A stretch of 64,000 bases of DNA. Origin: Octopus vulgaris (taxonomy: Eukaryota). The stretch is taken from NCBI GenBank assembly GCA_951406725.2, contig OX597819.1, positions 108,004,001-108,068,000 on the forward strand, in the 5' to 3' direction. How positions within the stretch are numbered: the stretch's first letter is position 1; every line of letters begins with the position of its first letter. A program made the translations under genes and the position numbers. The notes under the pieces are model-generated. The model saw only the letters and a list, made by a program, of their open reading frames with translations. It did no database searches and was not told the origin of the DNA. Below are positions 8,990 through 59,923 of this stretch, piece by piece.

Positions 8990-10273
8990 CTAAGGTTTGT
9001 TTCCATTATCAATAGCACATTTATGAGTATATTTATAATCACTACGAGCAAACGATTTCCCGCAAGTAGCACAGTTGTATGGCTTTTCCCCAGTGTGAGT
9101 GCGTTTATGTCGTATTAAAGTACCAATTTGAGAAAATCTTTTGCCACAGATTTCACAGTGGTGCGGTTTTTCCCCAGTATGAATACGTGTATGTCCTATT
9201 AGGCTACCCTTTTCTGAAAATTCTTTCCCACAAACTTCACAGTGATATGGTTTCTCACCAGTATGAGTACGTCTGTGCACTGTTAGAAAAGTCTTTTGAG
9301 AAAAGGCTTTCCCACAAATATCACAGTGATGTGGTTTTTCCCCAGTGTGAATTCGTTTATGTTTTCTTAATATGGTATTATTTGAAAAATATTTTCCACA
9401 TATTTCACAGTGATATGGTTTTTCCCCAGTGTGAATCCGGTTGTGTCTCACTAAAGAACCATTTTGAGCAAATGCTTTGCCACAGATTTCACAATTGTGT
9501 GGCTTTTCTCCGGTGTGAACACGTTTGTGTCCTCTTAAGCTGCTCTTATCAGCAAATTTTCTTCCACAAACTTCACAGTGATATGGTTTCTCTCCCGTAT
9601 GGGTACGTTTGTGTATTGTTACAACATATTTTTCAGGAAATGCTTTTCCACAGATGTCACAGTGGTGCTGTTTTTCCCCAGTGTGAACACGCTTATGCTT
9701 TCTTAATACAGGTTTGTCTGAAAATTCCTTCCCACATGTTTCACACTGATACGGTTTCTCCCCAGTATGAGAACGTTTGTGTACTATTAAGGAAGATTTC
9801 ACAGCAAATGTTTTCTCACATATTTCACAGTGGTATGGCTTTGAGTGCACACTTTTGTGCCTTTGAAAGTCACTCACATTAGAAAAAGCTTTCCCGCAAT
9901 CGTCACACTTGAATGGTTTTTCGCCAGTATGAATACGTTTATGTCTTGTTAAGTTACCAAATTGAGTAAAAGGTCTCCCACATATCTCACAGTGGTATTG
10001 CCTTTCTCTAGTGTGAGTAAGTGTGTGTGCTGTCAGATTGCCTTTTGTAGAAAAAGTTCTACCACATATTTCACAGCGGTGTGGTTTCTCTCCCGTATGA
10101 GTATGTAAGTGAGCTTTTAGATGACCTGTTTTAGAGAATGTTTTCCCACATATTTTACACTTGTATGGCTTTTCCCCTGTGTGAGTGCACTTATGAATAG
10201 ATAATTTACATTTTGTAGTAAGTGTTTTCCCACAAATATTACATTTGTAACGCTTTCCAGCTTTCTGAAACAT
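8990..10273 (-). CDS. Tandem C2H2 zinc-finger protein (ZNF-A), 427 aa, 14 C2H2 fingers plus a terminal C2HC-type finger
   Basis: Uninterrupted ATG-initiated ORF of CX2CX12HX3H repeats with TGEKP linkers; no N-terminal effector domain. Confidence 0.93.
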   Translation of the reverse strand: MFQKAGKRYKCNICGKTLTTKCKLSIHKCTHTGEKPYKCKICGKTFSKTGHLKAHLHTHTGEKPHRCEICGRTFSTKGNLTAHTLTHTRERQYHCEICGRPFTQFGNLTRHKRIHTGEKPFKCDDCGKAFSNVSDFQRHKSVHSKPYHCEICEKTFAVKSSLIVHKRSHTGEKPYQCETCGKEFSDKPVLRKHKRVHTGEKQHHCDICGKAFPEKYVVTIHKRTHTGEKPYHCEVCGRKFADKSSLRGHKRVHTGEKPHNCEICGKAFAQNGSLVRHNRIHTGEKPYHCEICGKYFSNNTILRKHKRIHTGEKPHHCDICGKAFSQKTFLTVHRRTHTGEKPYHCEVCGKEFSEKGSLIGHTRIHTGEKPHHCEICGKRFSQIGTLIRHKRTHTGEKPYNCATCGKSFARSDYKYTHKCAIDNGNKP

Positions 10274-10348
10274 TCTTTGAACATAGAAACTTCAAACTTA
10301 AAATTCTGATCTTATTTTTCCCTTCTGTTAAGACATTTGCAAGTAAAT

Positions 10349-10642
10349 ATCATCATCATCATCATCATCGTTTAACGTCCACTTTCCATGCTGGCATGGG
10401 TTGGATGGTTTGACTGAGGACTGGCGAGCCAGATGGCTGCACCAGGCTCTTATCTGATCTGGTAGAGTTTCTACAGCTGGATGCCCTTCCTAACGCCAAC
10501 CACTCTGAGAGTGTAGTGGGTGTTTTTACGTGCCACTGGCACGAGGGCTAGTCAGGCGGTACTGGCGATGGCCATGCTCAAATGGTGTTTTTTATGTGCC
10601 ACCTGCACAGGAGCCAGTCCAGTGACACTGGCAACGACCTCA
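10349..10642 (-). mobile_element. RTE-type 3' end repeat with (TGA)n tail inside the predicted ZNF-A 5' UTR
   Basis: (CAT)n-CGTTTAACGTCC...GGATGCCCTTCCTAACGCCAACC; same family at about 19525-19880 and 52617-52940. Confidence 0.75.
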
Positions 10643-10991
10643 AAGACAACAATTTTCCAGCAATTTAATTTTTAGTAATTAAAAGAAATCAGAAGCACTG
10701 TTCTAAGCAAAAAAAGTACGACGCACATCTGAGAAGCAATTATATTGGGTACTCAAATCTTCAAGAACCATATATATATCAGCTCTGTTAACTGTAGAAC
10801 CTCTTCTATAGAAAATCCTCATAGATGTAGAAATATATCCTGAAATAAAATAAAATAAATATTAGATACATTTATCAATAAATTGTAGAATGTATGAATA
10901 ATTAATCGTATCATGTATAAATAACTAATCACATCAGTATCACATAGTTTCATAAACGTAGACAATAGATCAGTATTTCAAAGGAGATTAG

Positions 10992-11211
10992 CCCTTTAGT
11001 ATCCACATTATTCCGTCAAATGCAATGTATGTTTGCTTATATTGTTTTGAATTAATCATGCATTATCTTGTAGTTTAGAGATTTTGAGAATGTGATTGTT
11101 TAGTTTTAGAATGATGCTGTAGGGTCGAGGTGAGAGGCTGGATCTGGCCAGTTTCAACATGAAACAAGTTGTATATGTTGGCCAGGTATGGCCAGTTTGA
11201 ATGCTTAAGGG
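10992..11211. mobile_element. TTAA-targeting MITE (piggyBac-like ends)
   Basis: TTAG|CCCTTTAGTATCC ... GAATGCTTAAGGG|TTAA. Confidence 0.6.
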
Positions 11212-11882
11212 TTAAGACTTCACATGAAAATAGCACATTCATAATGAAATATTAAAACATATGAATGCTTGCCAATTTTGCAATAAAGTGTTATACACTG
11301 GCCAATTTATTAACAGATTTAAACCAGGTATACTTAGTTAAACAGAAGAGTTGATTTAATACAAGTAATAGAACTGTTAATAAAATTATTAGAACTATGG
11401 AACTCTTACTCCTAAAACAGCAGTGATACACAGTTGGTCATCCTACAACACATCAGAAAAAGATGATCAGAATGATTAGCATGAAGTCACTAATGTACTT
11501 TATTCTTTAGTGCCTTTTTTCTGAAACTTCATTGGCCTGTTTTCCAAGAGCAAAAACTGCATCACAGCCATCTCTGTGGAGACCATAGGCATAACTTTTC
11601 CTTTAGACCAAACCACGAAAAGCAAAAACCTTTCAATACTACTGTTGTTTTGAGAAATGAAGAACATTAATATGATTCAGTATAGTGTTCCTTCTTCAAA
11701 TCTTGATAAGAAACCAAAAGGAGAAAACCAATACAGGTTCAAATTATTGTTGTAGATAATGCTAGATACTTGAAAAACTGATTAACAACTTTTCTGGATG
11801 TTTATTGGTGAAATAAAATTATAATGGAAGTTCTGGTGGAAATATCATACCTGTATGATAATTTAACTCAGTACTGTATGTG

Positions 11883-13425
11883 GTTAATATATAGTTTAAC
11901 TCCTGGTCACCAAAGCAAAAAAAAAATCTAACAGGTGTAAATAAATGTGTAGAAAACGAATATGAAAACAAAAATTTGCGCAAATGGGTGTGTGGGGAAA
12001 GGACTTTTGGAAAATTCACAAGATGGGATTTTCCCCTCATAACTTTCAGGAAAATGGATATATATTAGTGAAATTTTATAGAAATACCTTTCAAATAGCA
12101 TAGACTACGATTTTAAAGAAATTTGTGGGGAAAATGCTTTCCCAATGGGTGGGGAGAGGATTTCGGAAAATTCACACAATCTGATTTTTGCTCTCAATGA
12201 AATTTTACAGAAACACCTTTCAAACAGCATAGATTACGATCGATTATAAAGAAATTTGAGGGGAAAATGATCCATTTTTTTCCCTCGTAACTTTCAGGAT
12301 CTAGTTTAGCACCCAGTCACCAAAACAAAAAAGGTCTAATAGGTGTAAAAAATGTGTAGGAAACAAATATGAAAACAACAATTTGTGCAAACATACATAT
12401 ACATACCTTCATCTTGGCTGGTAATTATTTGATGGCAACAATTCAAGAGAGGAAGGTATAACTTGGCTGCCTCTATGAAGAACTTGTGCAACAGACTTCC
12501 TTCATGTTGAGAAGTTATAAATAAATATCTTGCAAGATATTGTTGAAGATATTTTGATATTGAATTCCTGGCTTTTAGATTGATTCTTTTATGTCTCTCT
12601 ACGGTCTTTCAATATTTTGTGTGTGTATGTTTCTATGTGTGCTATCTTCAAAATTCTCGAGCACTAGTTTTCAAAGGTGACAATATCGAAAATGAAATGA
12701 GGGATAGGTTTCAAGTAAACCTTTCCATAGCCTTTCAAACGGCATAGATTATGATGAAATTTGTGGAATCTTGGTGGAATATAAACAACAATAAAAAAAG
12801 AAGGTGTGTGTATAAGAAAAAATATTTTCTATAAGAAAAGTATGCTAAACAGATCATGTGAATTTTCCGAGTCCTTTCCCCATCCTTTCAGAAAACATTT
12901 TCCACTCAAATTTCTTTATAATCGTAATCTAGGTGTTTCTGTAAAATTTCACTAAAAGGTATCCATTTTCCTGAAAGTTATGAGGAGAAAAAATTGGATC
13001 AGGTGAATTTTCTGATAGTCCTCTAAACACCCACCCTCCATTCGTTTGCGCAAATTTTTGTTTTCATTTTCGTTTTGTTTTGGTGACCGGGTGCTTAACT
13101 AGATCCTGAAAGCTATGAGGGGAAAAAACGGATCGTGTGAATTTTCCGACAGTCTTCTCCTCACCCCTTCAGAAAACATTTTCCCCTAAAATTTCTTCAT
13201 AATCGTAAGCTATGCGGTTTGAAAGGTGTTTCTGTAAAATTTCATTAAAAGGATATCCATTTTCCTGAAAGTTATGAGGGGAAAATCGGATCTTGTGAAT
13301 TTTCCGAAAGCTCTCTCACCACCGTAAATTTTTGTTTTCCTATTCGTTTTCTACACATTTATTTACACCTATTTACACATTTTTTTTTTTTTTTTTGGTA
13401 ACCGGGAGTTAAATTATATATTAAC
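11883..13425. repeat. Long imperfect inverted repeat (arms about 500 bp) built from a modular dispersed repeat
   Basis: GTTAATATATAGTTTAACTCCTGGTCACCAAA... mirrored by ...TTTGGTAACCGGGAGTTAAATTATATATTAAC; related modules at about 26200-26490, 38430-38650 and 58380-59020. Confidence 0.75.
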
Positions 13426-14574
13426 TCTGAATGCTTAATATTAATTTCTTAATTATACAGTTTTGAATATTAGGTTCACTCTCTCTAAGAAGAGGAGTAT
13501 ATTGTTCTTTAGTAACAGAATAATTACCATGTTCTTTTGTAGTCACCTTGTAAAGCACGTTACTTTGGGAATGTGCTCCGGCTCTTCCACCTCGCCCTCA
13601 ATTAATCTTTCTAACACCCTCCAAAAACAACAATAAATCCATTCCTCCCATCATACTGTAACTTCTTCCAACAATACATCCATTCCGCCCAGTATACAAC
13701 TTTTTCCAACACCTCACCTGAAGTTATAACTCCGTCCATTCTCTTTTTCACCCTCTAAGCTAGTGCTAGTGTCACGAAAAAAAAGCACAAATACAGTCTA
13801 TAAAGAGGTTTGTGTTAGGAAGGCCATCCAGCCATAGAAACCAAGCAAAATAACAGAGAAACTGGAGCAATCCATCTATTTATGTCTCGCTGTCCAAGCC
13901 ATATCAGCATGGAAAGTGGATGTAAGATGATGAAGACAACTGCATTTGAAAGCGGTATTGTTTCACTTCAAGAAATTATCAGCACTGTTATTTCATTTTC
14001 AGTTTATTACATATGAAAATGGAAAATCCCTGATGTTCAAAACATTAAAATCCGAGGACTATTTTTTGTAATAAAAAAAAGGAATACGTAATATAAAAAC
14101 CAGTGTTGTTTTAATTTTAAAAGAATCTACACCAAAACATATTGGCATCCGTCCGCCCATCCAAGAACATTATCCTTACCAAATCAATTTGCTGAGTTAG
14201 CAAGTGTCTTGGCGTCAACGTTCATATTTTGATTCACACAATAGAATTATAAAATGTATCAACACAGGTTGGAAAAAACTATCGATATTATGTAAATAAT
14301 ATGCAGGTGGAGTTTCGTCTGCCAATGTACATAAATAAATGTTATCTCACCTCAGTGTATTCTTTTCCTATCACTTGCAGTTTAACATCGATAAATAGCA
14401 GGATATAGGCGACACACAGCAGATCATTAGGTTTAAAACTATCACAAGTACTTCATTAAATTAATTTACAGTTATCCTACAGTAAATTAGTAATCATTTC
14501 TGTATTCTATATATATTTCTACGTTTTATATAGTTTTTCTTATATTAAGGTAAATAAATCTTTAGACGAACTTC

Positions 14575-14640
14575 GACGTGCACTTCCCGCTAGGGCTTAA
14601 TGAGCATGCGCAGGTCAAGTAAATCACTTCCGGAGCCGCT
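14575..14640. promoter_or_regulatory. Putative ZNF-A promoter
   Basis: Local CpG patch with NRF1-like GCATGCGCA, ETS-like CACTTCCGG and E2F-like TTCCCGC, about 250 bp upstream of the donor. Confidence 0.55.
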
Positions 14641-15648
14641 ATAATGTTTCTTGATATAGGTCAAATTCTATCTTAATTTAAGTATATTTTCTTTGCGAGC
14701 TGCTAGAATTATTAAGTACGCTGGGCAAAATCTCTTGCGACATTTCATCTGTCTCTACGTTCAAATTCCACCGAGGTCGACTTTTCCGTTCATCCATTCA
14801 GGGTCGATAAATCAAGTATCAGTGAAATTAAGTCCCCTTCCCCCAAATTTCAGATTTTGTGCGTACAGTAGAAAGGATTATTATTATTATTACTAGCAGG
14901 ACTCGTCAATATTTCATGGGATTAATGGTAAACTTATTGGGTTAGTTCAGAAAACTTTATCCAAAAAACCTGAAAGCAGCAGCAATAACAATAGCAGAAG
15001 CTCCACCGCCATCTGCCATGCCAGAATCTACACCAACACATGTAACAACACCACAGATAGAAGACATGTTCCTACCCAACATGGCACACTCAGTCACAGA
15101 GTGAAGGGGAGTAGAAAATTGTGAATAAAATAGGAAAGAAAAGAATAGATAATTCATCCATTAAAAAAATGACTGCAAAAATGCATCACAAACATAGGAC
15201 ACACAACACCAACATCAATCTACCATCACTACCAACAGCAACACCACCAAGCTCACCTCCACAACCAGCATCGACAATACAACAGACATTGTCCCAAACA
15301 CAACCAATCCCTCATCTGCAATAACAATAACAGCAAATACAACAAAAAGAACACATACTACACAGCAATAAACATTAAAAACAAAAAGCTACTCCACTAC
15401 ATGCAACACAACACTAGCATATCAGAAACAAATTACATATTGTCCAAAAAAATCGCACCACCAACACACATAAAAATTATTCCATCAGACCAAAACACAT
15501 ATCCAGTACTAAAAATGAAATTCCCCAAGGTAACTGGGGACTACTGAGAGACAATATCAAAAAGGATGTACACAAATATTCTTGTGAAAGAACGCACAAC
15601 TAACCAGAAGGATGGAGCAATCATCCTTCCTCCAAAAGACTAAGGTAA

Positions 15649-17700
15649 ATGGTCTTTCCCACATTTTTCCATTCTTTATTTAGCATGGCCTTACTCAGAA
15701 TAGGCAGCATAAATGCATGTGGCGTAGGGTCATCTTGGAAGCAGGGTCACCTGCTCAATGACCTCAGGTCACTGAACATAAATATGGTGGCCATCAGTGA
15801 GACCAGAATTTTCAAGGCAGGAGTCTTTGAACCCATTTTTGGCAGCTACAAGGTTTCCACATCTCCAAGCTGTCTGGGATCTGGTGAAAAGTTGTGTTGT
15901 TTCAGAAAGGCTTGGATCTCATAATATGGACGATCTTCCTAGACTCAGAAGGTAAGTTGGTGATGCTGGATATGACCAGCAGGGATGGCTATGTTTTCAG
16001 GCTAGAGACTGTCTACGCCCTGGCAGGGGCAGGATGGCTTGATTTCTTCAGATGCCTTGAGACCTTTCTAGGAAAGTCCTCCTCCTTAGTGCTAATGGGA
16101 AACTGGAATGGTATCTAAGATGCATGCTGGGACTGTGTGGAACTAGTAGATAGAGGAGAAGTGTGTAAAAAGCTTGCAAATCTGCTCAGACATTTCCAAT
16201 TCTCTGACAGGTACCAACTGAATTTCCTAAATGTGTCAATGTAGACATGAACTAGCTATATTGGGTCATCCAGATCATATCTAGACAGAGTTTATTTGTA
16301 GGGGAGTTGATAAGGTTAGCATAAGCCATCCACATTACAAAATAGTTGACTATACAAACTACACATTTGTGATCTAGGGTCCTGGTTACTGGAAGTTGAG
16401 CCCGTCTTTTCCAGTGTACAGACCTATTGAGACCAGATTAGTAAATTAGTTGAGTGGGCATTGACAAGAGCAATCATTAACAACAAATGGTGATTTGCTC
16501 TGAAAAGGGCAATTAGAGTAGAATCAATATGATTTTGTAAAGGAGTAGCGATTGAGAGAACTAGATTAGTGGGTGAGTTAGTTAAAAGCTAGAAGAGGTT
16601 TTTACAAAAGGCAGCACAACTGCTGTGCTTGCAGCAAGATTGGCTCTCAACCAATTCTTCAGCACAAAGTACAAAGGCTGTGTTGTCAGAGTTAAGGCAC
16701 GTGCTCTTAGACACGAGGAGACAAAAAGCTGTTTGATAGACCCAAGTGGCAGAGGTATGTCATGACAACAGAACCACTATCTGGTCTTTGACAGACCAAG
16801 ATGGGTGTGTGTTACTCAATCCCAAGTAGATGTGTGCAGCTTTTCAGCGGCACTTCACTCAACTGTTCAGGGGCAGTGGTGGGCCAGATCACAAGTTGGA
16901 CTTTAGTGCCTACCTCAACCCACTGCCGAGGCTCTCAACCACAGAGGTAGAGTGTTGCAAAAGGCCAGTAACAGCCAATGAAATGCAGGAGGTGATGAGT
17001 GGATGCATGAGAATCAAATTGCCTGGTTTAGATGATCTGCCCTACAAGCTTTATGTTTACATGCCAGACTGTTCAGTGATTGCTTGGCATATGTCTACTG
17101 CAAATGGCAGCAGAACAGAATTCCCAGTTCTGTGAGCAGTGGAGCAGTAATGCTGCTGAAAAATGACCTGTAAAACGAGGACCATATCAATAATTTTAGG
17201 CCCATAACTCTGCTAAATGCAGTGTTTAAGTTTTGGGCCAAAGTGTTAAACATGTGGTTAGCACTTATTGTTAGTGGTCTAGTGGGGGAGGTGCAGACAT
17301 GCGCTATCACTAACAGATCTATCCACAACAACCTCCACTTCATGTGATACATTATAGAGAGGGTGGCTAAGGAAAAGGCACGGATAGGGTTCTGATCAAC
17401 TTAGAATAATCAAAAGCTTTTAATAGAGTTGATCATTGTTAATTAGTGGCAGTCCTCAAAGTAACTGGCTTCAGACTTGTTTCCAGTGTTTGGTCTGCCA
17501 AAAATGTCCCTTCTCATCACTTTTCTATGTACTGATTCTGGAGCCAATACTACACATATTAGAGGTGTCGAGGGGCATTCCATGCAAACTAGGATGTGAG
17601 AGATCCATATCAGCATATTTCTACATCATCTTAGTGGTGTCAAGCACCAAACATATTGAGATGATTGGCACTGCTCTCAAGAGGTACAAGGCAGTAAAGA
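15649..17700 (+). mobile_element. Degenerate L1/Tx1-like LINE ORF2
   Basis: APE N-terminus IGSINACG...AISETR; VYA, MGNWN; KLPGLDDLPYKLY; NFRPITLLN; many stops and frameshifts. Confidence 0.8.
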
Positions 17701-17728
17701 AGCAAAAATTAGCCATAAAATTATACAT

Positions 17729-17830
17729 AAAAGCAGACATAGTGTCATGAATGCACATAAGTACCCCAAATATATCCATATCTATATATTTGGGGTACTT
17801 ATGTGCATTCATGACATTGCGTCTGCTTTT
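17729..17830. repeat. Hairpin with a 33 bp perfect stem and 8 nt loop
   Basis: TGTCATGAATGCACATAAGTACCCCAAATATAT - CCATATCT - exact reverse complement, extended by AAAAGCAGAC/GTCTGCTTTT. Confidence 0.9.
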
Positions 17831-18176
17831 CTATGGGTATGTATAAGCATTTCATTTATTTCCTTTGTGTTCTCTGATGAAGAAAAAACTTTTGGGTTAA
17901 TCCAGAAATTGGTCAGATCCAGAGATAATTCAATTTTATGAATTTCCATTAGCTTGTTCCCTTACTTTTCGACACGTGTGCAATAATAATAGTAATGATA
18001 TTTAATGTGGTTTGACGATTTAGTGTCTCCTTTCAGCATATAGACAAGAATTTTTTTCTTTGCCCTTAATTATAATTGCATTTATGATTTCACCTTAATA
18101 GGCCTGATTTTTTAATTGCTGGCCACTGATAAAATTTTAAACATTTTTATCCTTTTATATTATAATTATATATATA

Positions 18177-18212
<36 letters not shown>

Positions 18213-20451
18213 CATTTATCCATCTATCTATTCATATATCGTATCCAGAAAGTTTGCTGCAAACATTTTTGCTACACAAAAAAATATTGTCGAATGAATA
18301 AAGAAATTACTTTACCCCTTCTTATTGGTTGCAACAATTATATACTAAGTGGAGCAATTCATCTTTTGTCTTGCGGCAAACTTTCTTACGGCCAAAAATC
18401 CTGAGGTGAATTTTCCTACAGGAAACTTTCCTAGAACTGCCTAAGTGGTGGAGGCTAATCAGCTCCAAGAAACAGAGACCATTTCTGTAGCAAAAGAAAG
18501 GATAGAGAGAAGGACCAAAGGTTGGAATGTACCTAATAGTGTAACTATTTGAGTGGCCTATCTTAGGATGCAATCCAAGTTATTTGTGTGCATAACAGCA
18601 GTACTCCAATGTGGGCTTCACTTTAGCCTGTAGAGTATCAGTGGCAACCGGGGGCTGAAATATTTCCTAACCTCGAAAAGAAAGGTTAATTTTGGAGAGA
18701 TAGTCCTAGCTGTGCCCACTGTATATAAGTTTACCATTTACCACAGCTTTGTAATGACAACAATGTAATATTAAGAATTAAATTCAGAAATAAATACCAG
18801 TTTCACAAAGTATTTTATAAATTTATTAAATACATAAATTTTTTTAAAAATCAAAAATCTCCCTTTACCATTTTGATAAATTGGAGAAAAATATCACAAG
18901 AGATTGTCGCACTTATGTAACATTTCTAGCATATTTTTGTGTGATTACCTTCAGGACATCAGAAGATGGTACAGTATTGTCTCTACAGCAATTTAACAAT
19001 TATCCCTTAAAATATATTCCCTGTTCAGTTCTCATGTAGTTGTTGCTGATAAGCTCAAGAACAGCCCTAACCAAACACCTAGCATTCCAGCCAAGACCAT
19101 CCCATCTTTTTGTATATCTTAGACTACATTGTTCATTATGGTAGAGTTTGATTTAAGGAGGATTTGGTTGCTATTTCTAGTACATCAAGTGACTACATAG
19201 AGGCTCCCTTGCTAGTTCATTAGAGCAAAAATATCCTCTCCAGAAGATAAAGGTAGTTTAATTCTATGTGGTTGTTCAACCTGCTAGAAATAGCAGGTAA
19301 ATCTCCTTCAGACCATATCCTACCATCTTAAAAAATGGATACATAGAATCATGTAGTCCAGGGTACACAATATCAGGGGTAAAATGAGAGGGTCATGTTA
19401 GAAATGCTTGTGATAAACGTTTGTTGGATCAATGCTGATTTAAGACTAAACGAAAATATAACTCAATTTGATGTGGTTACTTTCATTCCCTCCAACAATC
19501 AAATACACAAAAGCACCCTTCAATTGTCAGGCAATATGCTGTGCTTGTGAAGACCTGTTGAACCAAGTGAAATCATAGCCATGGCTGATGCCAGGGCCAC
19601 CTGACTGGCACGTAAAAAGCACCATTTGAGCATAGCTGATACCAGTACCCCATGCCAGTGGCACATAAAAAGCACCATTCAAATGTGGACGATGCCAGTG
19701 TCACCTGACCAGCACCTAAAAAGCACCCATTACACTCTCAGAGTAGTTGGCATTAGGAAGGGCATTCAGCTGTAGAAACTTGGCCAAATCAGATTGGATT
19801 TGGTGCAGCCTCCCAGCTTGCCAGTCCTCAGTCAAACCATCCAACCCATGCCAGCAGTGAAAGCGGATGTTAAACGACAACAAAGTTCTTAATAGGAGTC
19901 TTTCTCTCCAGCATATCTAGAACTATGTTTGCTCCGAAGAGAACATTTCAAGGGAATGTTTTTCTAGGAACTTAACCATGCTATGGATTTTTCTAGTTCA
20001 TATTAGTCCATTGCTGATAAAATATCAAATATCCTATGTTTCATTCCTACACACATTTCAAGATATACTCTTCAGTACAAACTAGTTGAATTAGAATTCC
20101 AAACTTTACTATAGATATATGACTGTACACATGTATCAACTATTAGAGCCTCCATCTGGTTGCACAACTGCTTGAAATTGCAGCCAAATTTCCCTCAAAT
20201 TAAACTCCACCATCATAAATATTGGACACATTATATATAATGTAGTCCAAGATAACTCTAAAAAGATGAGATGGGTATGATTGGAATATTTTTGATGATA
20301 CATTTACTAAATCAAAGGTTGATTAGGAACTAAAGAACACCATTAAGTCTACTACATAACCCCAAACTTTATCACGTTATATTTTCTCTAATGTATGAAT
20401 GATTTAAGAGACCCTTCTATCACTATTGTGTGACAATGTTCAAACAAAGGC

Positions 20452-21756
20452 TCATAACAAGGATTTCTGTTTAGTATGAATCAGTTTGTGTTTTGTCACC
20501 AGACCTTTGTTTGAAAATGCTTTCCCACAGATATCACAGTCAAATGGTTTCTCCCCTGTGTGAACAACTTTATGGATCCTTACAGTATTTTTCCGAGCAA
20601 AGGTTTTCCCACAGATATCACACTGGAAAGGTCTCTCTCCACTGTGAATGACTTTATGACTAATTACTTCACTCTTTCTAGCAAATGTCTTATCACAGAT
20701 ATCACAGTCAAATGGTTTCTCTCCCGTATGAATCACTTTATGTAAACGTAAATAACCACTCTGTGAGAATGATTTACCACAAACCGCACAGTGGTATGGT
20801 TTCTCTCCTGTGTGAACCACTTTATGTTTCATTAGATGACCATTACTCGCAAACGTTTTACCACAAATATCACAGTGGTATGGTTTCTCTCCTGTGTGAA
20901 CCATTTGGTGTTTTCTTAAATTACCTTTACATGAGAATGTTTTACCACATGTTTCACAGTGATATGGCTTTTCTCCAGTGTGAACCATTTTATGTCGAGT
21001 GACATCACTTTTTCTAGAGAATGCTTTACCACAAACATCACAGCGAAATTGACTATCTTCTGTATGAATTATTTTATGGATGGCTAAACTACTATTGGAT
21101 GAAAACCTCTTATTACAAATAATACATTGGTAAGGTTTGTCTCCTGTGTGAACCACTTTATGCCGTGTTATTTGACCTCTTCTGGGGAATGCTTTACCAC
21201 AGATTTCACAGTTGAACGGACGTTCTCCTGTATGGACCATTCTATGAATACGTAAGTTACTATTAGATATAAATGCTTTTCCACAGACTTCACAAGTGAA
21301 TGGCTTTTCCCCAGTATGAATCATTTTATGTTTCTTTAAGTTGGTATTAGACATAAACGTATTATCACAAATTTCGCAACGGTATGGTTTCTGTCTCATA
21401 TGTGCAACTTTATGTGCATTCAATTGCCAATTACGTAAGAATTTTTTACTACAAATCTCACACTTGAATGGTCTTTCTCCTGTATGAACAACTTTATGTC
21501 TGGATACATCACCTTTGTTTGTGAACACTTTACCACATATTTCACAGCTGAATGGCTTTTCTCCAGTATGGATCATTTTATGCTTTCGCAAGTTGCAATT
21601 AAATGTGAACGACTTGCCACACACTCCACAGTGGTGTGGTTTTGCATCAGTGTGGGATTGCTTGTGCTTATTCAAGTGCCAAGAGCTTAGAAAGTTTTTA
21701 CTACAAATTTCACAGTGGTGGATTGGTTCTTCTGTAAGAATCATTTTGCCTTCCAT
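20452..21756 (-). CDS. Tandem C2H2 zinc-finger protein (ZNF-B), 434 aa, 15 fingers
   Basis: Open ORF with TGEKP/TGERP linkers; the track start at 21759 is TTG, the first ATG is at 21756. Confidence 0.93.
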   Translation of the reverse strand: MEGKMILTEEPIHHCEICSKNFLSSWHLNKHKQSHTDAKPHHCGVCGKSFTFNCNLRKHKMIHTGEKPFSCEICGKVFTNKGDVSRHKVVHTGERPFKCEICSKKFLRNWQLNAHKVAHMRQKPYRCEICDNTFMSNTNLKKHKMIHTGEKPFTCEVCGKAFISNSNLRIHRMVHTGERPFNCEICGKAFPRRGQITRHKVVHTGDKPYQCIICNKRFSSNSSLAIHKIIHTEDSQFRCDVCGKAFSRKSDVTRHKMVHTGEKPYHCETCGKTFSCKGNLRKHQMVHTGEKPYHCDICGKTFASNGHLMKHKVVHTGEKPYHCAVCGKSFSQSGYLRLHKVIHTGEKPFDCDICDKTFARKSEVISHKVIHSGERPFQCDICGKTFARKNTVRIHKVVHTGEKPFDCDICGKAFSNKGLVTKHKLIHTKQKSLL

Positions 21757-21958
21757 CAAGCTGCTATTTTCCCACTTTGAAGACCTAAATTAAGTAGGAT
21801 AATTATTGTTGGTGAATATATCTTCCGGAAAACAAAAGAATCTCTTTCACAGCTACCTTGAAGGATTTTTTAGAACTCTCAAGGGAGCTCTTTTTAGTTT
21901 TAAATCAGGAAATGACATCTTTGCATAGAAATCCTCTTTTCATGATGCAAACATCTTT

Positions 21959-23967
21959 CTGAAATACAAACAGAACCAACATTAATATGGGGTTCATGAT
22001 AAGTAAAATAACATTAAAAATTAATAGCAAGGATATCGTTTTAAATCTTGACTCTCTGCAACATATATGAAACATAAAAACAAACAGACTTTCACTGGAT
22101 TATCACATTTTAAAATGGCAACGATGATAATGTTCTCAACTTCTGATCAAATCATCATGCCATCAGCCATTATATTTTGACAACAGATAAAGTTAAGCTA
22201 TGAATATATAAACACCAATATTATACCCAGTACTTAGGGTGGTAAGTGGACAGAATCATAAGCATGCTGGGCTTAGTGACGTTTTGTCTCTCTTTATGTT
22301 CTGAGTTCAGATTTCGCCAAGGTTGATTTGCCTTCCATACCTTCAGAGGCGATAAAATACCAGTTGAGTGCCGAGGTTGATGTAAATGACTTTCCCCCTC
22401 TCCCAAACTTGCTGGCTTTGTGCTAAAATTTTAAACCAATACTATGCCCAGTAAAAATTCCTAAAAACAGTCTCCTGATCCAAGTATAGAACAATGGATG
22501 TCAATCAATGTGTATGTTGCATAAATTTTGTTAGTTTTTTTTTACATTTGTTCTTCCATGCTAGTATAAGTTACAGAAGCATTGTTTTAGTCTTTCTGTC
22601 ACTAACTCTCTACACATCCCACCACCATGTACCATTGCTGTTTGTATACAAGCATTGTACAATTTAACACACACATATACACACATTTAAAGATACAATC
22701 AAGAGGAAAGGGTACTCAATATGTACAATAAAAGTCAAGAAAATGACAGTATGAATTAATTTGAAGAAATTTCGGAAATACATCAAACCCTCCACTAAAA
22801 GTAGTGATAGCCAGCAATCTGAAGTTGGCAAAGAATGTAATTTTTTGCTTTCTTCTAAGTAAAGCCTGAAATTTTGGTGGGAGGGTGCTAGTCAATTACA
22901 CTTACCCCAGTGCTCAACTGGTATTTGTTTTATTGCTTGAAAAGGCGAAGTGAAACTCGGCAGAATTTGGACCAGAGCGTAAAGACGGACGAAACGAGAC
23001 AACATTTTGTCTGGTGACAACAGCTTAATGAGACTTGATTTTAAGGAAATCTATTAGCACACTGGACGAAGAAATGTTTAAACGTGTATACAGTACTGGT
23101 GATGCAGCATCTGTAACATGCAGAGAGTTGGTGACCTGATATTAAAATGGTATCTACACAAGGTGAAATGATAGAAAATGTACAATAGACCGCAAAACTT
23201 TTTCCCAATACTCACAGAACTCACATATGAGAAACATAAGAAGCTGTCTTTACTCAACGCTTTATTCATTTATTTGTTTTTAAGAAGATGAATGAACCCT
23301 ACGACAAAGAAGTTAGTGAAGATATATTTGTGAATAGGGAAGAAATGACACTGAGTGACTACGGCAAAATTTACAAGCAACAAGTGCGACTGAACATAGA
23401 AAACAAATCGTGACGAGTACTCGGAACAGCCTTCAGGAAGATATGGTAAATCAATGGAAGAAGATTGGAGCATATCTAGAAAAACAAAGCAAAAATTTAA
23501 CCAGAAGACAGATACAGTCAAATAAGCCACCAGCAAATGTGGAAGATCTTGTGTCGTTAGCGTTAAAGCAAGTCTACAACCGAAATCGCCGATGAAGTAC
23601 TCTCGATTGGACATGATTTGGGACTAAATAACAATATCCTACATTTGTCAGTTATTGGAAGGAACATTTAATTTGTATCGTTTCAATATATTTCGTTTTA
23701 CTTTTAATCTTGTAATTAATCAACAGAGTTTGAGGGATATTTGGCTGATATTTCTCGCAGGTCGAGTGAACACAGAGAAACTAGCTCGTTAGTTACGTAT
23801 GTAATTATGTATATAACACTAAAATCTTTAAAGAAAAAAAAAAAAAAACACCTTCAATAAACCTTGGCTGCTGTAAACAACACGTGAATCATGAAACAAC
23901 AGATGTCAACAATAAGACACTTGTTAAACGACAGCAACAGATTACAACACACTCGGAGTTGACTTAC
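21959..23967 (-). other. Putative 5' UTR intron of ZNF-B
   Basis: Donor GAG|GTAAGT at 23967; acceptor TGTATTTCAG| at 21959. Confidence 0.65.
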
Positions 23968-24161
23968 CTCAACATACCGCTCTTCTCTGTCTGATCTTCT
24001 TCCTTTCTCTTCTCCTTAAACACTCTACATAGTTAAACAACAACATATCCTTTGTGCTCCAACTTCATGAATCGCCACTGCCGACACTACACAGTATTTA
24101 CATGTGTACACTGGGTGCACCACACTAAATCAACAGAAATTTGAACGGCATGTTATGGCTG

Positions 24162-50978: not shown

Positions 50979-51749
50979 TCATTTTCTACTGTGAATGAGA
51001 TGATGTCGCGATAGATTTCCATTTTTAGAAAATGCTTCACCACAAATTTCACACTGGTATGGTTTTTCTCCTGTATGTGTCCGTATATGGATCGATAAAT
51101 GACTACTGCATGTGAATGCTCTCCCACAAATTTCACATTGGTATTGTCTTCCACTGTGAAGCCTTCTGTGATCTGACAATTTAGTACTGCGTGAAAATAC
51201 TTTCCCACAGATTTCACACTGGTATGGTTTCTCACCAGTATGAATATGCTTATGGTCTGTTAATGTACAATTCTGAGAAAATGCCTTGCCACAGATTTCA
51301 CATTGGTATGGTTTTTCTCCTGTGTGAATACGTTTGTGACACAATAACTTAGTACTACATAAGAATGCTTTACCACAGACTTCACAGTCAAATGGTTTCT
51401 CTCCAGTGTGAACACGTTTATGATACATTAAATCAGCATTACGAGAAAATTTCTTTTCACAAATTTCACAGCAGAATATTTTTTCTTTGTGAATACGTCT
51501 ATGATCTGACAAGTAACTTTTACAAGAAAAGGATTTGTCACAGATTTCACAATTGTAGAGTTTTTCTCTTGAATGAGTCCGTCTATGATCTGTAAGTCGT
51601 GTCATTCGGGAAAAGGTTTTCCCACAAATTTCACAGTGGTATGGTTTCTCACCTGTGTGAATACGAATATGAACTGTTAGGTGACTGTTTTGAGAAAACA
51701 CTTTACCACAAACCTCACATCTGTAAGGTTTTTCCTCTGTCTGCAACAT
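50979..51749 (-). CDS. Tandem C2H2 zinc-finger protein (ZNF-E), 256 aa, 9 fingers
   Basis: Open ATG-initiated ORF of C2H2 repeats; out-of-frame relic finger after the stop. Confidence 0.9.
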   Translation of the reverse strand: MLQTEEKPYRCEVCGKVFSQNSHLTVHIRIHTGEKPYHCEICGKTFSRMTRLTDHRRTHSREKLYNCEICDKSFSCKSYLSDHRRIHKEKIFCCEICEKKFSRNADLMYHKRVHTGEKPFDCEVCGKAFLCSTKLLCHKRIHTGEKPYQCEICGKAFSQNCTLTDHKHIHTGEKPYQCEICGKVFSRSTKLSDHRRLHSGRQYQCEICGRAFTCSSHLSIHIRTHTGEKPYQCEICGEAFSKNGNLSRHHLIHSRK

Positions 51750-52092: not shown

Positions 52093-54485
52093 CTGAAATT
52101 AAATAAAACAAATCTTAGTATGTAGTAGGTAATGTAGTATATAATTGCCAATTAAGTCATGCCTGTAATTAAAAATAACATGTCTTTGTGTGATTGTATG
52201 AGTATGTACACTTACAATGTGTGAGCAATGAAAGTATACTTATGTGTCCAATGTTGAAAAATAGGCAACTGGTGCTTTCTATTACTATTAAAAAGCTAAA
52301 ATCACTAATACTGATAACATTATGGAAACCTCTAGGTAATCATTTAACCTGCAGAATATAAAACAACCAAATCTCCCTCAAATCACACTCTAGTATCTTA
52401 AAACAGAATAGACGTTTCCTATATATATGCAATACCTAAAATAAGACAAAAAGATTATGACTATAATGTGTTTGATCATAGGTCTCCTCAATAAGGGAAA
52501 TTTGCAGGGGCTGCAATCTAACAACAATGTTACATTTGAAAAAAATACTACCTTCTTGTTTGTATCATACAATACACATTTAAATGCTCCTAATAAAAAC
52601 AAATGTAAATTTGTTTATCATCATCATCATCATCATTTAACGTCCGCTTTCCATGCTAGCATGGGCTGGACGGTTCAACTGGGGTCTGGGGAGCCCGAAG
52701 ACTGCACCAGGCCAGTCAGATCTGGCAGTGTTTCTACAGCTGGATGCCCTTCCTAACGCCAACCACTCCGAGAGTGTAGTGGGTGATTTTATGTGCCACC
52801 GACACAGGTGCCAGACGAGGCTGGCGAACGGCCACGCTCGGATGTTGTTTTTTTATGTGCCACCGACACAGGTGCCAGACGAGGCTGGCAGACGGCCACG
52901 CTCGGATGGTGTTTTTATGTGCCACCGACACAGGTGCCAGATACATACATACATACATACATACACACACACACATATGGTGACTTATATTAGCAAAAGT
53001 ATAGAGATTAAGATTTTATAAGGGAGGATGGAGCTGAGTAAAACACAAATCAAAAATTTGGTCAGCAAGCACAGGAAATAAGATATACAGAAAATCAAGA
53101 CTCCTGGTACATGCATGACTACATGGTTTAAGAGGTCTGTTTCAAAATCATGTTTCCATGTTTGATTCCACTACGCATCACTCTGGTTAAATATTTTCTT
53201 CCCAACTACATGGTTTCAGGCTGTCTGAATGTGGCACCTTGGACAAGGGTTCTACTTTAGCCCCAAGCTGACCAAAGCCTTTATAGGTGGATTTGTGAGA
53301 GGAAACGAAAGCAGCCTGTTATGTATATATGTGTGTCCTTGTTTTGATATCACAGATGATTGTGAATTAGCGTCAGTGTCATTCATTTCCAACATATTGC
53401 GAAAACATGTCCGGCCATGATGAAATATTACCTTGTTTGGAAAGCGAGTGTTGGCAACAGGAAGGATATTCGGCCGTAGAAAATCTGCCTCATTAAACTT
53501 AGTTCGACCCACGCATGCATGGAAAAAAATGCACGTTAGATCAATAATGAAGAGGAATAAATAAACCAAAATAAAGAAGCATGTACACTCAGTCAATTCT
53601 ACAGAGCGAAAAACAACTGGAAATTCAAACATCGTTTTAAACTTTCACAAAGTGAGCCAATTCAGGCTTTCAAATGCGAATAAAATAAATGTATATACTT
53701 CAAATGTAAACAAATTACACGCACACACACAATTTATATCCATTTAAAAGAAAAGAAAATGGAGAAAAGGAAGTTAATGATTGTTTATCTATCTATCTAT
53801 ATATATAACGTTCTCCAACTCTAATTAGCTTCTAATTACAAATAGATATATCGTCAACTCTTGTAGTTCATAGAATCATTTGCACGCCGGGCAAAATGCT
53901 TAGCAGCATTTCGGCTGTCTTTATGTTCTGAGTTCAAATCCCGCCGAGATCGACTTTGCCTTTCATCCTTTCGAGATCGATAAAATAAGTACCAGCCAAG
54001 TACTGTGGTCGATGTAATCGACTTCCCCACGTCCCAAAATTGCTGGCCTTATACCAAAATTTGAAAGCATTACTATTAGTGGCTGTAGTTATGTCGAAAT
54101 TTGTTGAAATTCTTTTGATTTCTATTTTTATCTTTTGACATATCTTTATTGTAGTTGACGTAAACACCTCCTTTTGTGTGTTGCATTTCGTCCTTTGATA
54201 TTGTCTTAAGCTTTTACGGGGAATAAAAATTATCATCATTCATTAATATTTTGTTAGTAAGCATTAATGTTATTGACTGGTGCGGACTCTCAGAAATCGA
54301 AAGGAAGCTTTAAAAAAAACAATAAAAACGCGTTGAAGGCAATTCTTTCTTTTGAAGATCCACGCTAAAACCATTGTGTCGGGCTGGCAATGTTTAAGGA
54401 GGACGAAAGTTTGTTTTCAGAAAAAAACCATCAACACTAATTTTGAAATAACTATTATAAACATATGAAACGAAAGCTACCTCAC
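52093..54485 (-). other. Putative 5' UTR intron of ZNF-E
   Basis: Donor CTGAG|GTGAG at 54485; acceptor TTTAATTTCAG| at 52093. Confidence 0.62.
52617..52940 (-). mobile_element. RTE-type 3' end repeat containing ~63 bp internal tandem units
   Basis: (CAT)n tail; ATGTGCCACCGACACAGGTGCCAGA occurs three times. Confidence 0.78.
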
Positions 54486-54666
54486 CTCAGTATAACTATG
54501 TTCTCTGGATTATTTTACTATTCTCTGCTCCTTAAAAACATTAGCACTATTGAACATTGCTAAGGTGTTCAAGCCACTAAAATTATACACAGTGGTTTCG
54601 ATATCTGACCATTAAATGTCATAAACCATTTGACTGAATGTGGCAAAATCCCGCATGTTATCATCG

Positions 54667-54696
54667 ACCGGAAGTACAGTGATGTTTAACTGATAA
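54667..54696 (-). promoter_or_regulatory. Putative ZNF-E core promoter
   Basis: Sense TATCAGTTA...CTGTACTTCCGGT, about 180 bp upstream of the donor. Confidence 0.55.
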
Positions 54697-55630: not shown

Positions 55631-55631
55631 T

Positions 55632-55693: not shown

Positions 55694-56156
55694 ATCGGAT
55701 GTGTTCGGACGTGGAGAAGTATGAGCTCCGCGCCGTTTAAAATGCCCAATATAGGACAGTGTAACCACAACTCAATCAAATGTTGAAAGTATCTATCTGT
55801 GTGTATGAGTGTGTGTGATACAGTTTGAGTGGGCGAGGAGGTCCGTCTATTTCTGTCCCTTATTAAGAAAGAACATGCAAAATTTTCTTTCCCTTGGAGA
55901 AGGACTTTGTTCGAAATGTCAGAAACTTCCTATCAAAGAAGCACATCCTATCAATTACATACTTAATCTTTTCTTCACGAAAATGTTTACTGTCTTACAC
56001 AAGGTAATCTGGCAACGATTTGCTACTTTCATACTCATAATTTTCTTATTGTATATAATATCATTATTATTAGTAATATTATTTTGTATATTTTTTATTT
56101 TTATATTTCTTTTATTTCTTGATTGATTAATTTTTTTTCCCACGGGTTTTGATAAC

Positions 56157-58055
56157 ATGCCGAAGCGAAACTATGACCCTGCGTACATAAAATATGGCTT
56201 CATTGCAATCGAACGTGGAGGAAAAGCTCTTCCGCAGTGTGTACTCTGTATGAAGTCCATTTCCAATGCAGCCATGAAACCCAGTCTGCTCAAACGTCAT
56301 CTTGAGACGAATCACATGGACAAGAAGGACAGAGATCAAGGTTACTTCCAGCGACTTGGCGAGAACGTAAAGCGGCAACGCATATACAAGACTGGCCAGA
56401 TATACCAGAAGAGAGCAGGAATTGTGAAAGCATCCTATGAAGTTGTTCTGGAGGCCAAAAACATGAAGGCGCATACTATTGCTGAGTCTATCGGTCATGC
56501 CAGCGGCAAAGACCTTGGTCAGGTACGTGATTGGAGAGGGAACGGCGGCGAAGTTGGAGAGTGTTTCTGTCTCTAACAACACTGTACAGCACCGTATCGA
56601 GATGTTCGACATTGCCGACCAAGTGAATGAGGGAGTGAGAGCCTCAAAGTACGAGTTTGCTATTCAACTCAACGAATCGACGGACATCACCAACTGCTGT
56701 CAACTACTTGCCTACATCCGCCTCATGCAGAATAATGCTGTGAAGACTGAATTATTGCTGAGCCAGGAGTTTTCCAGTACAACGAAAGGAAAGCATATTT
56801 TCGACGTTTTGGACAATTTCTTCAAGCAGAATGAACTGGATTGTGGAAAGTTGGTCGGATGCACGACTGATGGGGATCTATCTATGCTCGGTCGAAAGTC
56901 AGATTTTCAGGCTCATGTGAAAGCTATATCACCAAACGCCACCGCTGTCCATTGTTTCATACACAGGTTCGCTCTTTGTTCTCAGGTGCTCCCTCCAAAG
57001 TTTTTATCATGCTTGAACCGTGTTATCTGAATCGTGAATTTCGTCAAAACGTTGGCTTTGAATACTCGGCTGTTCAAGATGCTCTGCGAAGATTTCGGCT
57101 CCGACCACATCTGTTTCCTCTACCACACTGACTCTCGCGGGGTTATGCAACGAGGTGTTTATTTGAACTGAGGGATGAACTTCTTGTTTTCTTCATGGAG
57201 AAGGAACACGATTTTCTAAAAGATCTGGAGGATGAGGAGTTTATCTCAAGGTCGGCATACCTGTTGGACATTTTTGGAGCCTACAACTACTTAAACCTAC
57301 CGTTTCAAGGGCCCAACTGCACTGTCACAGAGTTCATCTCAAAGATGGGAGCATTTGTCCGGAAGTTGAATCTGTGGTTAAAGAACGTGGAGAGCAAACG
57401 CTACGGAATGTTCGAACTCCTGATTACACTTGAAGCGAACCCAATGATGAATTTACCCAAGTAATTGTCCGTCACCTTTCATTGTTCAAGACTGAGTTGA
57501 TGCATTACTTTCCGGACGTGACATGTTGTGCCTACATCGCCAATCCATTCTCCGTTGATCCAGCCGAGTTGCCTGTCGGGACCGGGGAACAAGAGGAACT
57601 CATAGATATCCAGGCTGACGAGACAGTAAAGATGAAACATAAAAGAATGCTCTCCTATAAACTTCTGCTTAAGCATGGCCTTCTCGTACCCGACGCTAGC
57701 CCGTCACGCTGTTCCCTAGCTACTGATTTTCTCTTCTACGTGTGAGTGTGAGCAGGGGTTCTTAGCCTTACTGGCCACCAAGTCGAAGAACCGGAACCAT
57801 CTTGCTGCGCCCGGCCATGATTTCCGATGCCCTGTGAGCAAGGCTTTGCCCCGTATTGACCAGCTGGTGGAGAAGAAAGAGATTCAGTCCTCGCATTCAA
57901 TTGAGTTGTGTTCTTTGTTGTTAGTTCATTTGTGTTTTCTACTTCTGATTGAATTGATATCTGATCGAATTGAGTTTTTCTAGAACCAGGTGGTACGCGG
58001 CGGCTGTACGAAATCTCTAAGTGGTACGCGATCACAAAAAGGTTGGTAACCACTG
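56157..58055 (+). mobile_element. hAT Buster/Charlie-type transposon, frameshifted transposase (about 56157-57900)
   Basis: BED finger PQCVLC...MKPSLLKRHLETNH, KAHTIAE, NESTD, CTTDG, HCFIHR; right TIR GGTTGGTAACCACTG ending at 58055; left TIR not found. Confidence 0.88.
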
Positions 58056-59237
58056 CTATATATAAATATACTATCCACCATATACACAAGTTCCACAAAG
58101 GTATATTCACCTAGACTTTTCCTTTTATTTTTTCGGGTTGACCTCGTCTTTCTCCACTTACTTTCCACTCTACACCCACACTCCGAAGAAAGACAACGTC
58201 TAAAAACATTTCATTTCTCTTAGTTCCAAACTAATAAGTTTGATAATAAAATTATCTCATTTTGTTGTTCTTTTGTTTGGAATTTTTTGCCCCCTCTCTC
58301 TTTCTCTCAGCTGTAAACAGTAACCCTGCAACGGACTAGCTTTCCGATATGAGTGATGAGCATACTTCCACACGTGTGCTATCCCGATTTTATTTTCTCA
58401 TAACGTCCAGAAAAATGGATATTTTTCAATGAAATTTTCAACAAATACTCTTCAGGTGATGTAGGTTCTGATTATACCAGAATTTGTGGTGAAAAAAAGA
58501 TTTTTTTTTCGTGAGTTGGGAGAGGAGTTTCGGAAAATTCAGACGACTCGACCTGACTTACTCAAACTTTCAGAGAAATAGATATTTCTTAATAAACTTT
58601 TCAATAAATACCCTTCAGAATGCGTAGATTACGATTATATCGTAATTTAACATGAACAAGAAAATTGGTGAGCACTCACACACACACACACACACACATA
58701 CTGTCACATATATATCTATAAAATGAAACTTAAAATTTTGTAAAAAACAAGAAAAAAAATTGTAGCGTATGTTTGTGTGTGTATTCACCAGTCTTCTTTT
58801 CCATATTGGATAACGATATCGTAATTCACACACTCTGAAAGGTATTTGTAAAAAATTTCATTAAAAAATATCCATTTTTCCAAAAGTTATGAGGAAACAA
58901 AGCTGGCTCCTGAGAATTTTCCGAAACTCTTCACCTCGGAAAATTTTTTCAACACTAATTCCGATTTCATTGAAAAATATTCATTTTCCTCAAAAGTTAT
59001 GAGGAAACAAAATTAAGGTGGAGGTACATATGGGGAGGTATGCCGGGGAATGTTGGCGTGCTCGACTAGCCAGTGGCGTGGCATTATTCGAAAGCTAAAA
59101 CGACGCAAAGTGCATTGTGACCAGCGATGTATAACACCCGATAATCTGGTCAATCACGCGATCACATGAGATATATATATATATATATATGTATGTATAA
59201 GAGAACAAAGTGTACGTACACCGCTATATATATATAT

Positions 59238-59434
59238 AATACAAAATGGGACAAGAACGCAAAACATCCAGATAATCAGCCGAAATTGCGAGGATGATCC
59301 GGTTCTTGACTGAGGATAAAAAGCTTCGAATGACCCGTCCTTGTTTTTTTGTATCGTCTATCTGGATGTTTTGTTGTCCCTTTTTGTATCACTTAGTTGT
59401 CCGGATGTTTTGCGTTCTTATCCCATTTTGTATT
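59238..59434. mobile_element. MITE with ~32 bp TIRs inserted in (TA)n
   Basis: AATACAAAATGGGACAAGAACGCAAAACATCC ... GGATGTTTTGCGTTCTTATCCCATTTTGTATT. Confidence 0.8.
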
Positions 59435-59699
59435 ATATATATATAAATATATATATATACACACACACACGTATGAGAGTGTGTGTATCTTTGTCACTCA
59501 CCACAGTTTGACAACCGGTGCTGGTTTGTTAACGCCTTCGTAGTTAGCAAAAGAGACTGAAACAATAAGTACCAGACTTAAAAAATAAGTATTGGGGTCA
59601 ATTCGTTCGACGGTGGGGTAGCGCCTCAGCTTAACCGCAGTCCAATAACTGAAACAAGTAAAAGATAGAAGGTGTGTACGTGTGTGTGTTTAGCTATAG

Positions 59700-59923
59700 T
59701 AGTATCGGTTAGTTTTCCCTCCTCTATACTTCCGGTCAGTGACACCTCATTCTATGTTGTGCTGCTAAGTTGATAAACCTTCTGTGTTGGTCGTAGTGGA
59801 CAATTAAAGACTGCTGTAGTATCAGCAGACCAGGGACACTTAGGGAGGATGCGTTGCTGTACAATAACTAACTGCAGAGGAGTGTTAAAATGAAGATAAA
59901 GTAGAAAAGAGTGATATTTCGAG
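59700..59923 (+). promoter_or_regulatory. Promoter and non-coding exon 1 of a probable sixth ZNF gene; coding exon not seen in the window
   Basis: TAGTATCGGTTAGT...CTATACTTCCGGT at 59700-59736, then a purine-rich exon ending GAG|GTAAG at 59923/59924. Confidence 0.5.

Follow-up and report, generated by a model that had tools for sequence, protein, structure and literature searches.

The genome of Octopus vulgaris (2.80 Gb in 227 contigs) carries a short promoter-like signature that was found to precede 13 related C2H2 zinc-finger (ZNF) arrays at five places, with each array lying downstream on the same strand. The signature was analysed in a stretch of 64,000 nt, hereafter the window (contig OX597819.1, here C6; C6:108,004,001-108,068,000), which contains five intact arrays, ZNF-A to ZNF-E, with 9-15 fingers per open reading frame (ORF). 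The flanks contribute ZNF-F, ZNF-G and five left-hand arrays, resulting in a cluster of 12 arrays over ~190 kb. The number of 13 copies is a lower bound, as the genome-wide runs used tight patterns only. We consider it probable that this 40-nt block is the ancestral TATA-less, housekeeping-type core or proximal promoter of one old ZNF subfamily.

An earlier note on this DNA had reported five sites of the motif CT[AG]TACTTCC[GT]GT, and five exact sites are indeed present at 24162-24174 (-), 26715-26727 (+), 39683-39695 (+), 54667-54679 (-) and 59724-59736 (+). Its minus-strand coordinates were right, while those on the plus strand were 3 nt off and mark TACTTCC instead of the motif start. No sixth site was found in the window when one mismatch was allowed. 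Shuffled versions of the window held 0.19 sites on average and 2 at most compared to the 5 observed, a significance that is overstated since the pattern was drawn from these sites. In agreement with the note, all five sites point toward their own ZNF array, that of ZNF-F being located just past the window end at 65678-66868 (+), and homology continues upstream beyond the motif. The distance from motif start to splice donor ranges from 159 to 235 nt. The complete cassette copies are located at 24151-24190 (-) for B, which shows the upstream block, the ETS-like core and the GCCAT block, and at 26699-26738 (+) for C, which is arranged head-to-head with copy B at a distance of 2.5 kb. Copies D (39667-39706, +) and E (54656-54695, -) were placed by alignment and model match, and copy F spans 59703-59747 (+).

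The aligned signature is 40 nt long and has the consensus TATCGGTTAGT-5 nt-CTGTACTTCCGGTCAGCCATAACA, also given as TATCGGTTAGT TTAGT CTGTACTTCCGGTCAGCCATAACA. A homologous non-coding exon 1 follows the block. The best-kept letters are TTAGT (10-13 of 13 copies per letter), CT, ACTTCC (12-13 of 13) and the GT that follows. The spacer measures 5 nt in 12 of the 13 copies and 10 nt in copy F. With ACTTCC[G/T]G, 11 of 13 copies contain the GGAA core of ETS sites; the ETS consensus used for this comparison is in part that of a preprint (bioRxiv 10.1101/2024.05.28.596138). No TATA column is conserved across the aligned cassette copies. Alignment scores exceed those of shuffles (z>3) in 7 of 21 pairs of exon-1 bodies, compared to 1 of 15 pairs for the 5' ends of introns and 0 of 36 for the upstream flanks. 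A resemblance to the DNA replication-related element (DRE) of DRE/DREF promoters was rejected: the full TATCGATA occurs in none of the 13 copies and TATCGAT in one, and the best-kept letters in this block are TTAGT. TATCGAT itself has 12 matches in the window, one of them inside a cassette.

The earlier note had called the signature cluster-specific, a claim that did not hold. Within the cluster, seven arrays have a strong copy and one has a degenerate copy (8/12), whereas the block is missing from 4/12 arrays. Five further arrays with the block were found at four other places, either up to 93 Mb away on C6 or on C25. The pattern searches located these copies at C6:115.06, C6:115.08, C6:15.44, C6:95.88 and C25:23.48 Mb. 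With a matrix derived solely from the five window sites, four outside ZNF promoters scored 19.9-35.2 and 85 ZNF ORFs of other clusters (71 with ≥4 kb upstream) ≤17.4, and the block was found in 0/85 of these upstream regions; the same matrix missed the degenerate copy. A tight ETS+GCCAT pattern yielded 11 genome-wide matches versus 0 in the reversed control and 2.5 expected. Three of these were new whole-block matches, each with a same-strand array 1.4, 4.5 or 9.9 kb downstream, and two of the three new arrays are closest to window genes B and D. The array at C6:15.44 Mb shows 90% protein identity to ZNF-D and has its own cassette. The arrays at C6:95.88 and C6:115.07 Mb are nearest to B and F, respectively. 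At C6:115 Mb, two block-bearing arrays group with the C6 genes, while a third array without the block groups with the C27-C29 radiation. These groupings come from a neighbour-joining tree of best-finger identity, which has no support values and is no test of monophyly. At the outside sites, 1/3, 1/2, 5/6 and 1/2 of the neighbouring arrays are without the block. Since the copies precede related arrays elsewhere while local neighbours have no block, the signature follows descent and not location and is specific to a subfamily. A degenerate copy of 21.6 bits at C6:115.052 Mb (L082:6948-6993, +) has no same-strand array nearby and is probably an orphan promoter.

That the motif belongs to a transposable element inserted before ZNF genes is extremely improbable and already largely refuted. 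The bare 13-mer does sit within repetitive surroundings at other loci (L002/L005/L011, L010/L023), and other ZNFs have a repeat with a GTACTTCCGG core nearby. However, 30 outside loci of the 13-mer (of 179) were inspected and none fits the cassette profile better than E=0.98, a 70-nt cassette copy used as a genome query found only itself, and the homology runs on into exon 1 and its donor. Cassette copies make up 2 of 2, 6 of 9 and 5 of 11 matches to the strict extended patterns. The motif is thus neither part of a transposable element nor common at unrelated sites. Genome-wide, the bare 13-mer is not enriched (179 matches versus 267 expected and 427 in the control). The loose pattern TATCRVTTAST..ACTTCC gave 33 matches versus 358 in the control, four of them cassette copies; the match at C22:31.39 Mb has no ZNF within 20 kb. 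An ETS core followed by a GAG donor 170-200 nt later was found 8 times versus 8 in the control, with three cassette genes among the matches.

The ETS-like core alone is more widespread and was also observed upstream of a proteasome alpha subunit gene, a SAC3/GANP-family gene and the C27 ZNF family. As a general signature of ZNF genes the ETS site was rejected, since in the other ZNF upstream regions ACTTCCG stands in sense orientation before 5 genes and in antisense orientation before 6 (C27 family counted once, repeats masked). Among 19 proteasome and LSM loci, mostly internal exons, one has ETS sites and one other has the core only inside a repeat. The cassette model found the block in none of three non-ZNF loci from this sample, which is too small for a frequency. 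Four fetched ETS+GCCAT matches without the full block have no ZNF in 10 kb; two more were viewed within 3 kb. At L195, L198, L199 and L200, which lie in CpG-rich DNA and have no ZNF within 10 kb, GCCAT directly follows the ETS core but the full upstream block is missing; at L195 the cassette model matches in part (20 bits). The four loci are possibly other promoters with an ETS-YY1-like pair. A dispersed repeat with the GTACTTCCGG core (L010, L023, L131, L140, L151, L170) gives ETS-like sites near several genes, among them ZNFs and an intronless proteasome alpha gene. The SAC3/GANP-family gene (L204:7270-8700, C6:15.438 Mb, -) is arranged head-to-head with the D paralog; its upstream sequence contains CCGGAAGTGACGT, which resembles an ETS-CRE (cAMP response element) composite site.

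The short promoter module is homologous and conserved among the copies, as the earlier note had proposed. Pairwise identity of the core is 0.73 (9 copies, 36 pairs, 29 nt) or 0.68 (all 13 copies, 78 pairs, 40 nt), values that are inflated by the outside members having been found via the motif, compared to 0.28 for the preceding 30 nt. For the five copies in the window and three in the flanks, the placement is also given by exon-1 homology and by their arrays. Identity at fourfold degenerate sites is 0.44, for best-matching fingers of unproven orthology. Unrelated genes reach 0.47 at such sites, and members of the young C27 family 0.88 among themselves. In collinear comparisons it ranges from 0.41 to 0.47 in three old pairs and amounts to 0.66 and 0.83 in two younger pairs. 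Because the block copies are about 70% identical while flanks, introns and fourfold sites look saturated, purifying selection on the block is likely and is the simplest reading. It is quite improbable that the copies are alike through neutral persistence or homogenisation, i.e. only through recent duplication or gene conversion. The two young pairs and the ascertainment of members by motif fit such a history, and unmethylated promoter DNA mutates more slowly, which would act in the same direction. On the other hand, most pairs are at the fourfold baseline and the flank just upstream is at chance. Identity is also highest at the motif letters, while the spacer between them varies, and copies on different contigs are unlikely conversion partners.

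The earlier note had proposed that the whole gene is the unit of duplication, and this was directly observed in the C27 family only. At C27:24.15-24.35 Mb, 14 young genes have a near-identical promoter with TACTTCCGG in sense orientation and a donor 85 nt later. From -200 to +3000, i.e. from the promoter through the array, these 14 units are 61-100% identical per 200 nt, intron bodies included. Promoter, exon 1, intron and array therefore duplicate together in this family. Its signature (C27:23.77-24.35 Mb, L101-L120) consists of GTCACATGAC, an E-box-like site, 7 nt before TACTTCCGG, and its core occurs in 19 exact copies, all on C27. In the C6 family, promoter, first exon and splice sites are homologous among the copies and distant copies keep the intron-type layout, whereas the intron bodies are not alignable. 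Co-duplication of promoter, exon 1, intron and array is inferred here from the homology at both ends of the intron.

Transcript evidence comes from contigs of four runs, guessed to be RNA, that were placed on 10250-30249; the results given refer to the contigs listed, and among the runs listed as carrying this sequence none is recorded as RNA. The ZNF-B junction 23967/21959 is bridged exactly by contigs from runs X1 and X4 (23968 joined to 21958), and two further B contigs end at 21958 with 30 and 186 letters unlisted. A contig from run X2 joins 14350-14583 to 10612-10838, which equals the ZNF-A junction 14350/10840 within a 1-nt ambiguity. Of the four junctions proposed in the earlier note, these two are hence joined by contigs of likely-RNA runs. 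Among the contigs listed none bridges ZNF-C, which was not counted as evidence. The leader of ZNF-A accordingly has an intron at 10840-14350 (-), reading GAG/GTGAGA ... ATTTCAG/ (slashes mark exon borders), and a non-coding exon 1 at 14351-14583 (-), the 5' limit of which is a contig end and not a mapped start. ZNF-B has an intron at 21959-23967 (-) and a non-coding exon 1 body at 23968-24150 (-), based on contigs and homology. For the other genes the structure was predicted from sequence. Introns are expected at 39918-43154 (+) in ZNF-D and at 52093-54485 (-) in ZNF-E. The predicted exon 1 of ZNF-F spans 59748-59923 (+) and ends at GAG/GTAAGA, and that of ZNF-C spans 26739-26873 (+).

Five GAG/GT donors exist as claimed before, namely in A, B, D, E and F, but this set includes ZNF-A, which has no motif, and excludes the motif gene ZNF-C. 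The family donor is lost in ZNF-C, where the aligned place reads GAAGAT and the only candidate is CG/GTATGT at 26873/26874. A tandem duplication of 1117 nt with 99.8% identity (26874-29106, +) lies at the start of the predicted ZNF-C intron. It begins exactly at the GT of the candidate donor and could be a recent duplication or an assembly duplication. All five acceptors of A-E read ATTTCAG, a 7-mer found 23 times in the window, and the probable acceptor of ZNF-F is CTTTCAG. As already described, the introns are not visibly alignable; they have in common only dispersed repeats and the final ~30 nt.

The proposed promoter would work as follows. The block would have been copied with non-coding exon 1, intron and finger exon in DNA-level duplications, and purifying selection would keep it while neighbouring non-coding DNA decays. 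An ETS-family factor is predicted to bind the GGAA core, with a second factor expected on the TTAGT block, which precedes the core by 5 nt. Just downstream of the starts, the GCCAT block is likely to serve as a YY1-like positioning site. Transcription would start at dispersed sites near the block, with a broad and constitutive output. The observed to expected CpG ratio is consistent with such a promoter. It ranges from 0.51 to 1.14 at six promoters compared to 0.06-0.56 in the 3' introns, and is higher at the promoter in six of six genes. A high promoter CpG pattern was reported for constitutively expressed octopus genes (PMC9476566). ETS domains are encoded in the genome, with 15 matches. Mammalian housekeeping promoters are driven by ETS sites close to the start (PMC5358759), and such sites can act as initiators themselves (bioRxiv 10.1101/2024.05.28.596138).

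Besides the two limits on the identity values given above, several observations count against an ancestral promoter under selection. ZNF-A, ZNF-G and two flanking left-hand arrays have no block. Nonetheless, ZNF-A is spliced and its CpG pattern is the same. The C25 array is no closer to the C6 genes than to other ZNFs. In the pair Zm68/Zm8, promoter, exon 1 and finger exon (83%) align while the intron does not, a difference that implies either rapid turnover of the intron or a finger exon that underwent conversion. Finally, two ZNF-B contigs extend past the motif on its upstream side, by 77 and 200 nt, so that the block may lie partly inside exon 1.

The last point would also fit a block conserved mainly as a transcribed 5' leader, i.e. 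as an element acting at the RNA level or in translation, the actual start then lying farther upstream. The conserved homology of exon-1 bodies, the 8-18 upstream ATGs per leader (A-F) and the single orientation in 13/13 copies are compatible with this explanation as well, but we regard it as improbable. The contigs show neither starts nor strand, the homology ends at the upstream block (0/36 flank pairs align) and CpG peaks at the block. Moreover, the core matches a known DNA-binding site.

The earlier note had further concluded that the shared module implies co-regulation of the genes. In its strictest form, TTAGT, ETS core and GCCAT at fixed spacing would be a composite site for a specific factor pair, possibly including a ZNF of the family itself, and the 13 genes would be switched together by tissue or stage. 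The 5-nt spacer and the TTAGT letters, kept to the degree given above, speak for such a code, and so does the survival of the block after relocation across C6 and to C25. The C27 family, in addition, pairs the same core with another upstream motif, all 19 exact copies of which lie on C27. Nevertheless, descent alone also gives fixed spacing, ZNF-A has the same CpG profile without the block, and octopus paralogs of one clade were found in different co-expression modules (PMC12513265). We hold this code to be unlikely. As the block was found in 0/85 other ZNFs, the ETS core is generic and paralogs fall into different modules, co-regulation of the entire family is too broad a claim, and the shared signature does not show co-regulation of the genes. 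A wider proposal, which we put forward only tentatively and consider unlikely, is that each octopus ZNF radiation has its own heritable code, consisting of an ETS core and a subfamily partner site at fixed spacing (TTAGT here, GTCACATGAC in C27). The partner factor would then switch whole subfamilies even after dispersal.

ZNF-A was correctly singled out as the exception. Its promoter sites at 14602-14633 (-) comprise CCGGAAGT, an ETS-like site in opposite orientation to those of B-F (14626-14633), and TGCGCATGC, which is NRF1-like. The cassette model gave no match at this promoter, which is thus no copy of the cassette. The ETS site faces the plus strand and one contig begins at 14627, while another contig (15055-15644, 230 letters unlisted) ends at a plus-strand AAG/GTAAAT donor. 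The ZNF-A promoter may act in both directions and give rise to a divergent, spliced transcript (14626-15644, +). The stretch directly following this donor (15645-~17700) is, judged by its translation, decayed and similar to a long interspersed nuclear element (LINE).

The coding regions in the window are those of ZNF-A (8990-10273, -; 427 aa, 14 C2H2 fingers, no other domain seen), ZNF-B (20452-21756, -; 434 aa, 15 fingers), ZNF-C (30265-31485, +; 406 aa, 13 fingers, candidate acceptor at 29952), ZNF-D (43714-44811, +; 365 aa, 13 fingers) and ZNF-E (50979-51749, -; 256 aa, 9 fingers). Tandem C2H2 fingers with TGEKP-type linkers lie in one exon, which characterises the genes as finger-only ZNFs. 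Pfam zf-H2C2_2 and zf-C2H2 were matched in both ORFs scanned (2/5 window ZNF ORFs, ZNF-B and ZNF-C), and no KRAB domain was matched in either. The KRAB- or FiNZ-type layout with an effector domain in an upstream coding exon was not observed, as neither exon 1 nor the first part of exon 2 is coding. In A-F, the main ATG is located 409-799 nt into the leader, directly before the fingers, and the proteins start 2-40 residues ahead of the first finger. By our own estimate, the number of upstream ATGs is close to the expectation from base composition. Given these ATGs, the ZNF mRNAs may be poorly translated; the leader of ZNF-B is bridged by contigs. A protein search with ZNF-B (7909 candidates scored) returned only generic ZNF matches of ≤50% identity among the 120 listed, so that no ortholog was found for dating. 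Further features of the window are a LINE at 5092-7561 (-), which has a reverse-transcriptase frame of 578 aa (Pfam RVT_1) and of which parts recur in inverted orientation at 1656-2234, and a broken frame at 56127-57030 between the head-to-head promoters of E and F. The latter has no Pfam match but resembles a hAT-type transposase.

Compared to known systems, the human KRAB-ZNF cluster at 8q24.3 is similar in its old paralogs, 5' untranslated exons and single finger exon, and also in its TATA-less dispersed promoters with ETS-containing common modules (PMC2865497). Those modules consist of predicted SP1/EGR/ETS sites within CpG islands and account for expression only in part (PMC2865497), whereas the octopus block aligns base by base in 13 copies and its genes have no KRAB domain. 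The 'sharp peak' and 'broad peak' classes of zebrafish FiNZ-ZNF genes likewise represent a ZNF subset with one promoter architecture; the zebrafish class relies on a TATA element and is linked to a measured wave of expression (PMC10547256), while the octopus block has no TATA and is known from sequence. In the mammalian housekeeping grammar, an ETS site lies near the start and YY1 just downstream, and either is a cryptic initiator (PMC5358759; bioRxiv 10.1101/2024.05.28.596138). The octopus block agrees in its ETS-type core, GCCAT within ~10 nt and an unmethylated-looking promoter, but GCCATAAC is only a partial YY1 match and the TTAGT block has no known counterpart. The cephalopod C2H2 expansions described so far are similarly clustered, lineage-expanded multi-finger genes (PMC12513265, PMC9068888), the paralogs of which diverge in co-expression module (PMC12513265). 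In the main text of PMC12513265, the words promoter, upstream, exon, intron and motif have 0 occurrences. No cephalopod description of such a ZNF promoter signature was found in literature whose coverage leaves out most subscription journals and supplements.

Taken together, a conserved ETS-type promoter copied with whole genes is an ordinary mechanism with precedents in human and zebrafish ZNFs. In a group that has no promoter-motif study as far as the literature was searched, the block gives a footprint of promoter bases that are likely to be functional. Mean best-finger identity is 0.68 among the C6 arrays and 0.69 to outside genes; finger arrays are too repetitive to classify well. Because finger identity is uninformative while the block found relatives up to 93 Mb away, it is usable as a lineage marker for octopus ZNF subfamilies. 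The comparison of the 13 cassette genes with their cassette-less neighbours would provide a direct test of the proposal (PMC12513265) that cephalopod ZNFs, once duplicated, come to differ in their regulation although they have elements in common.

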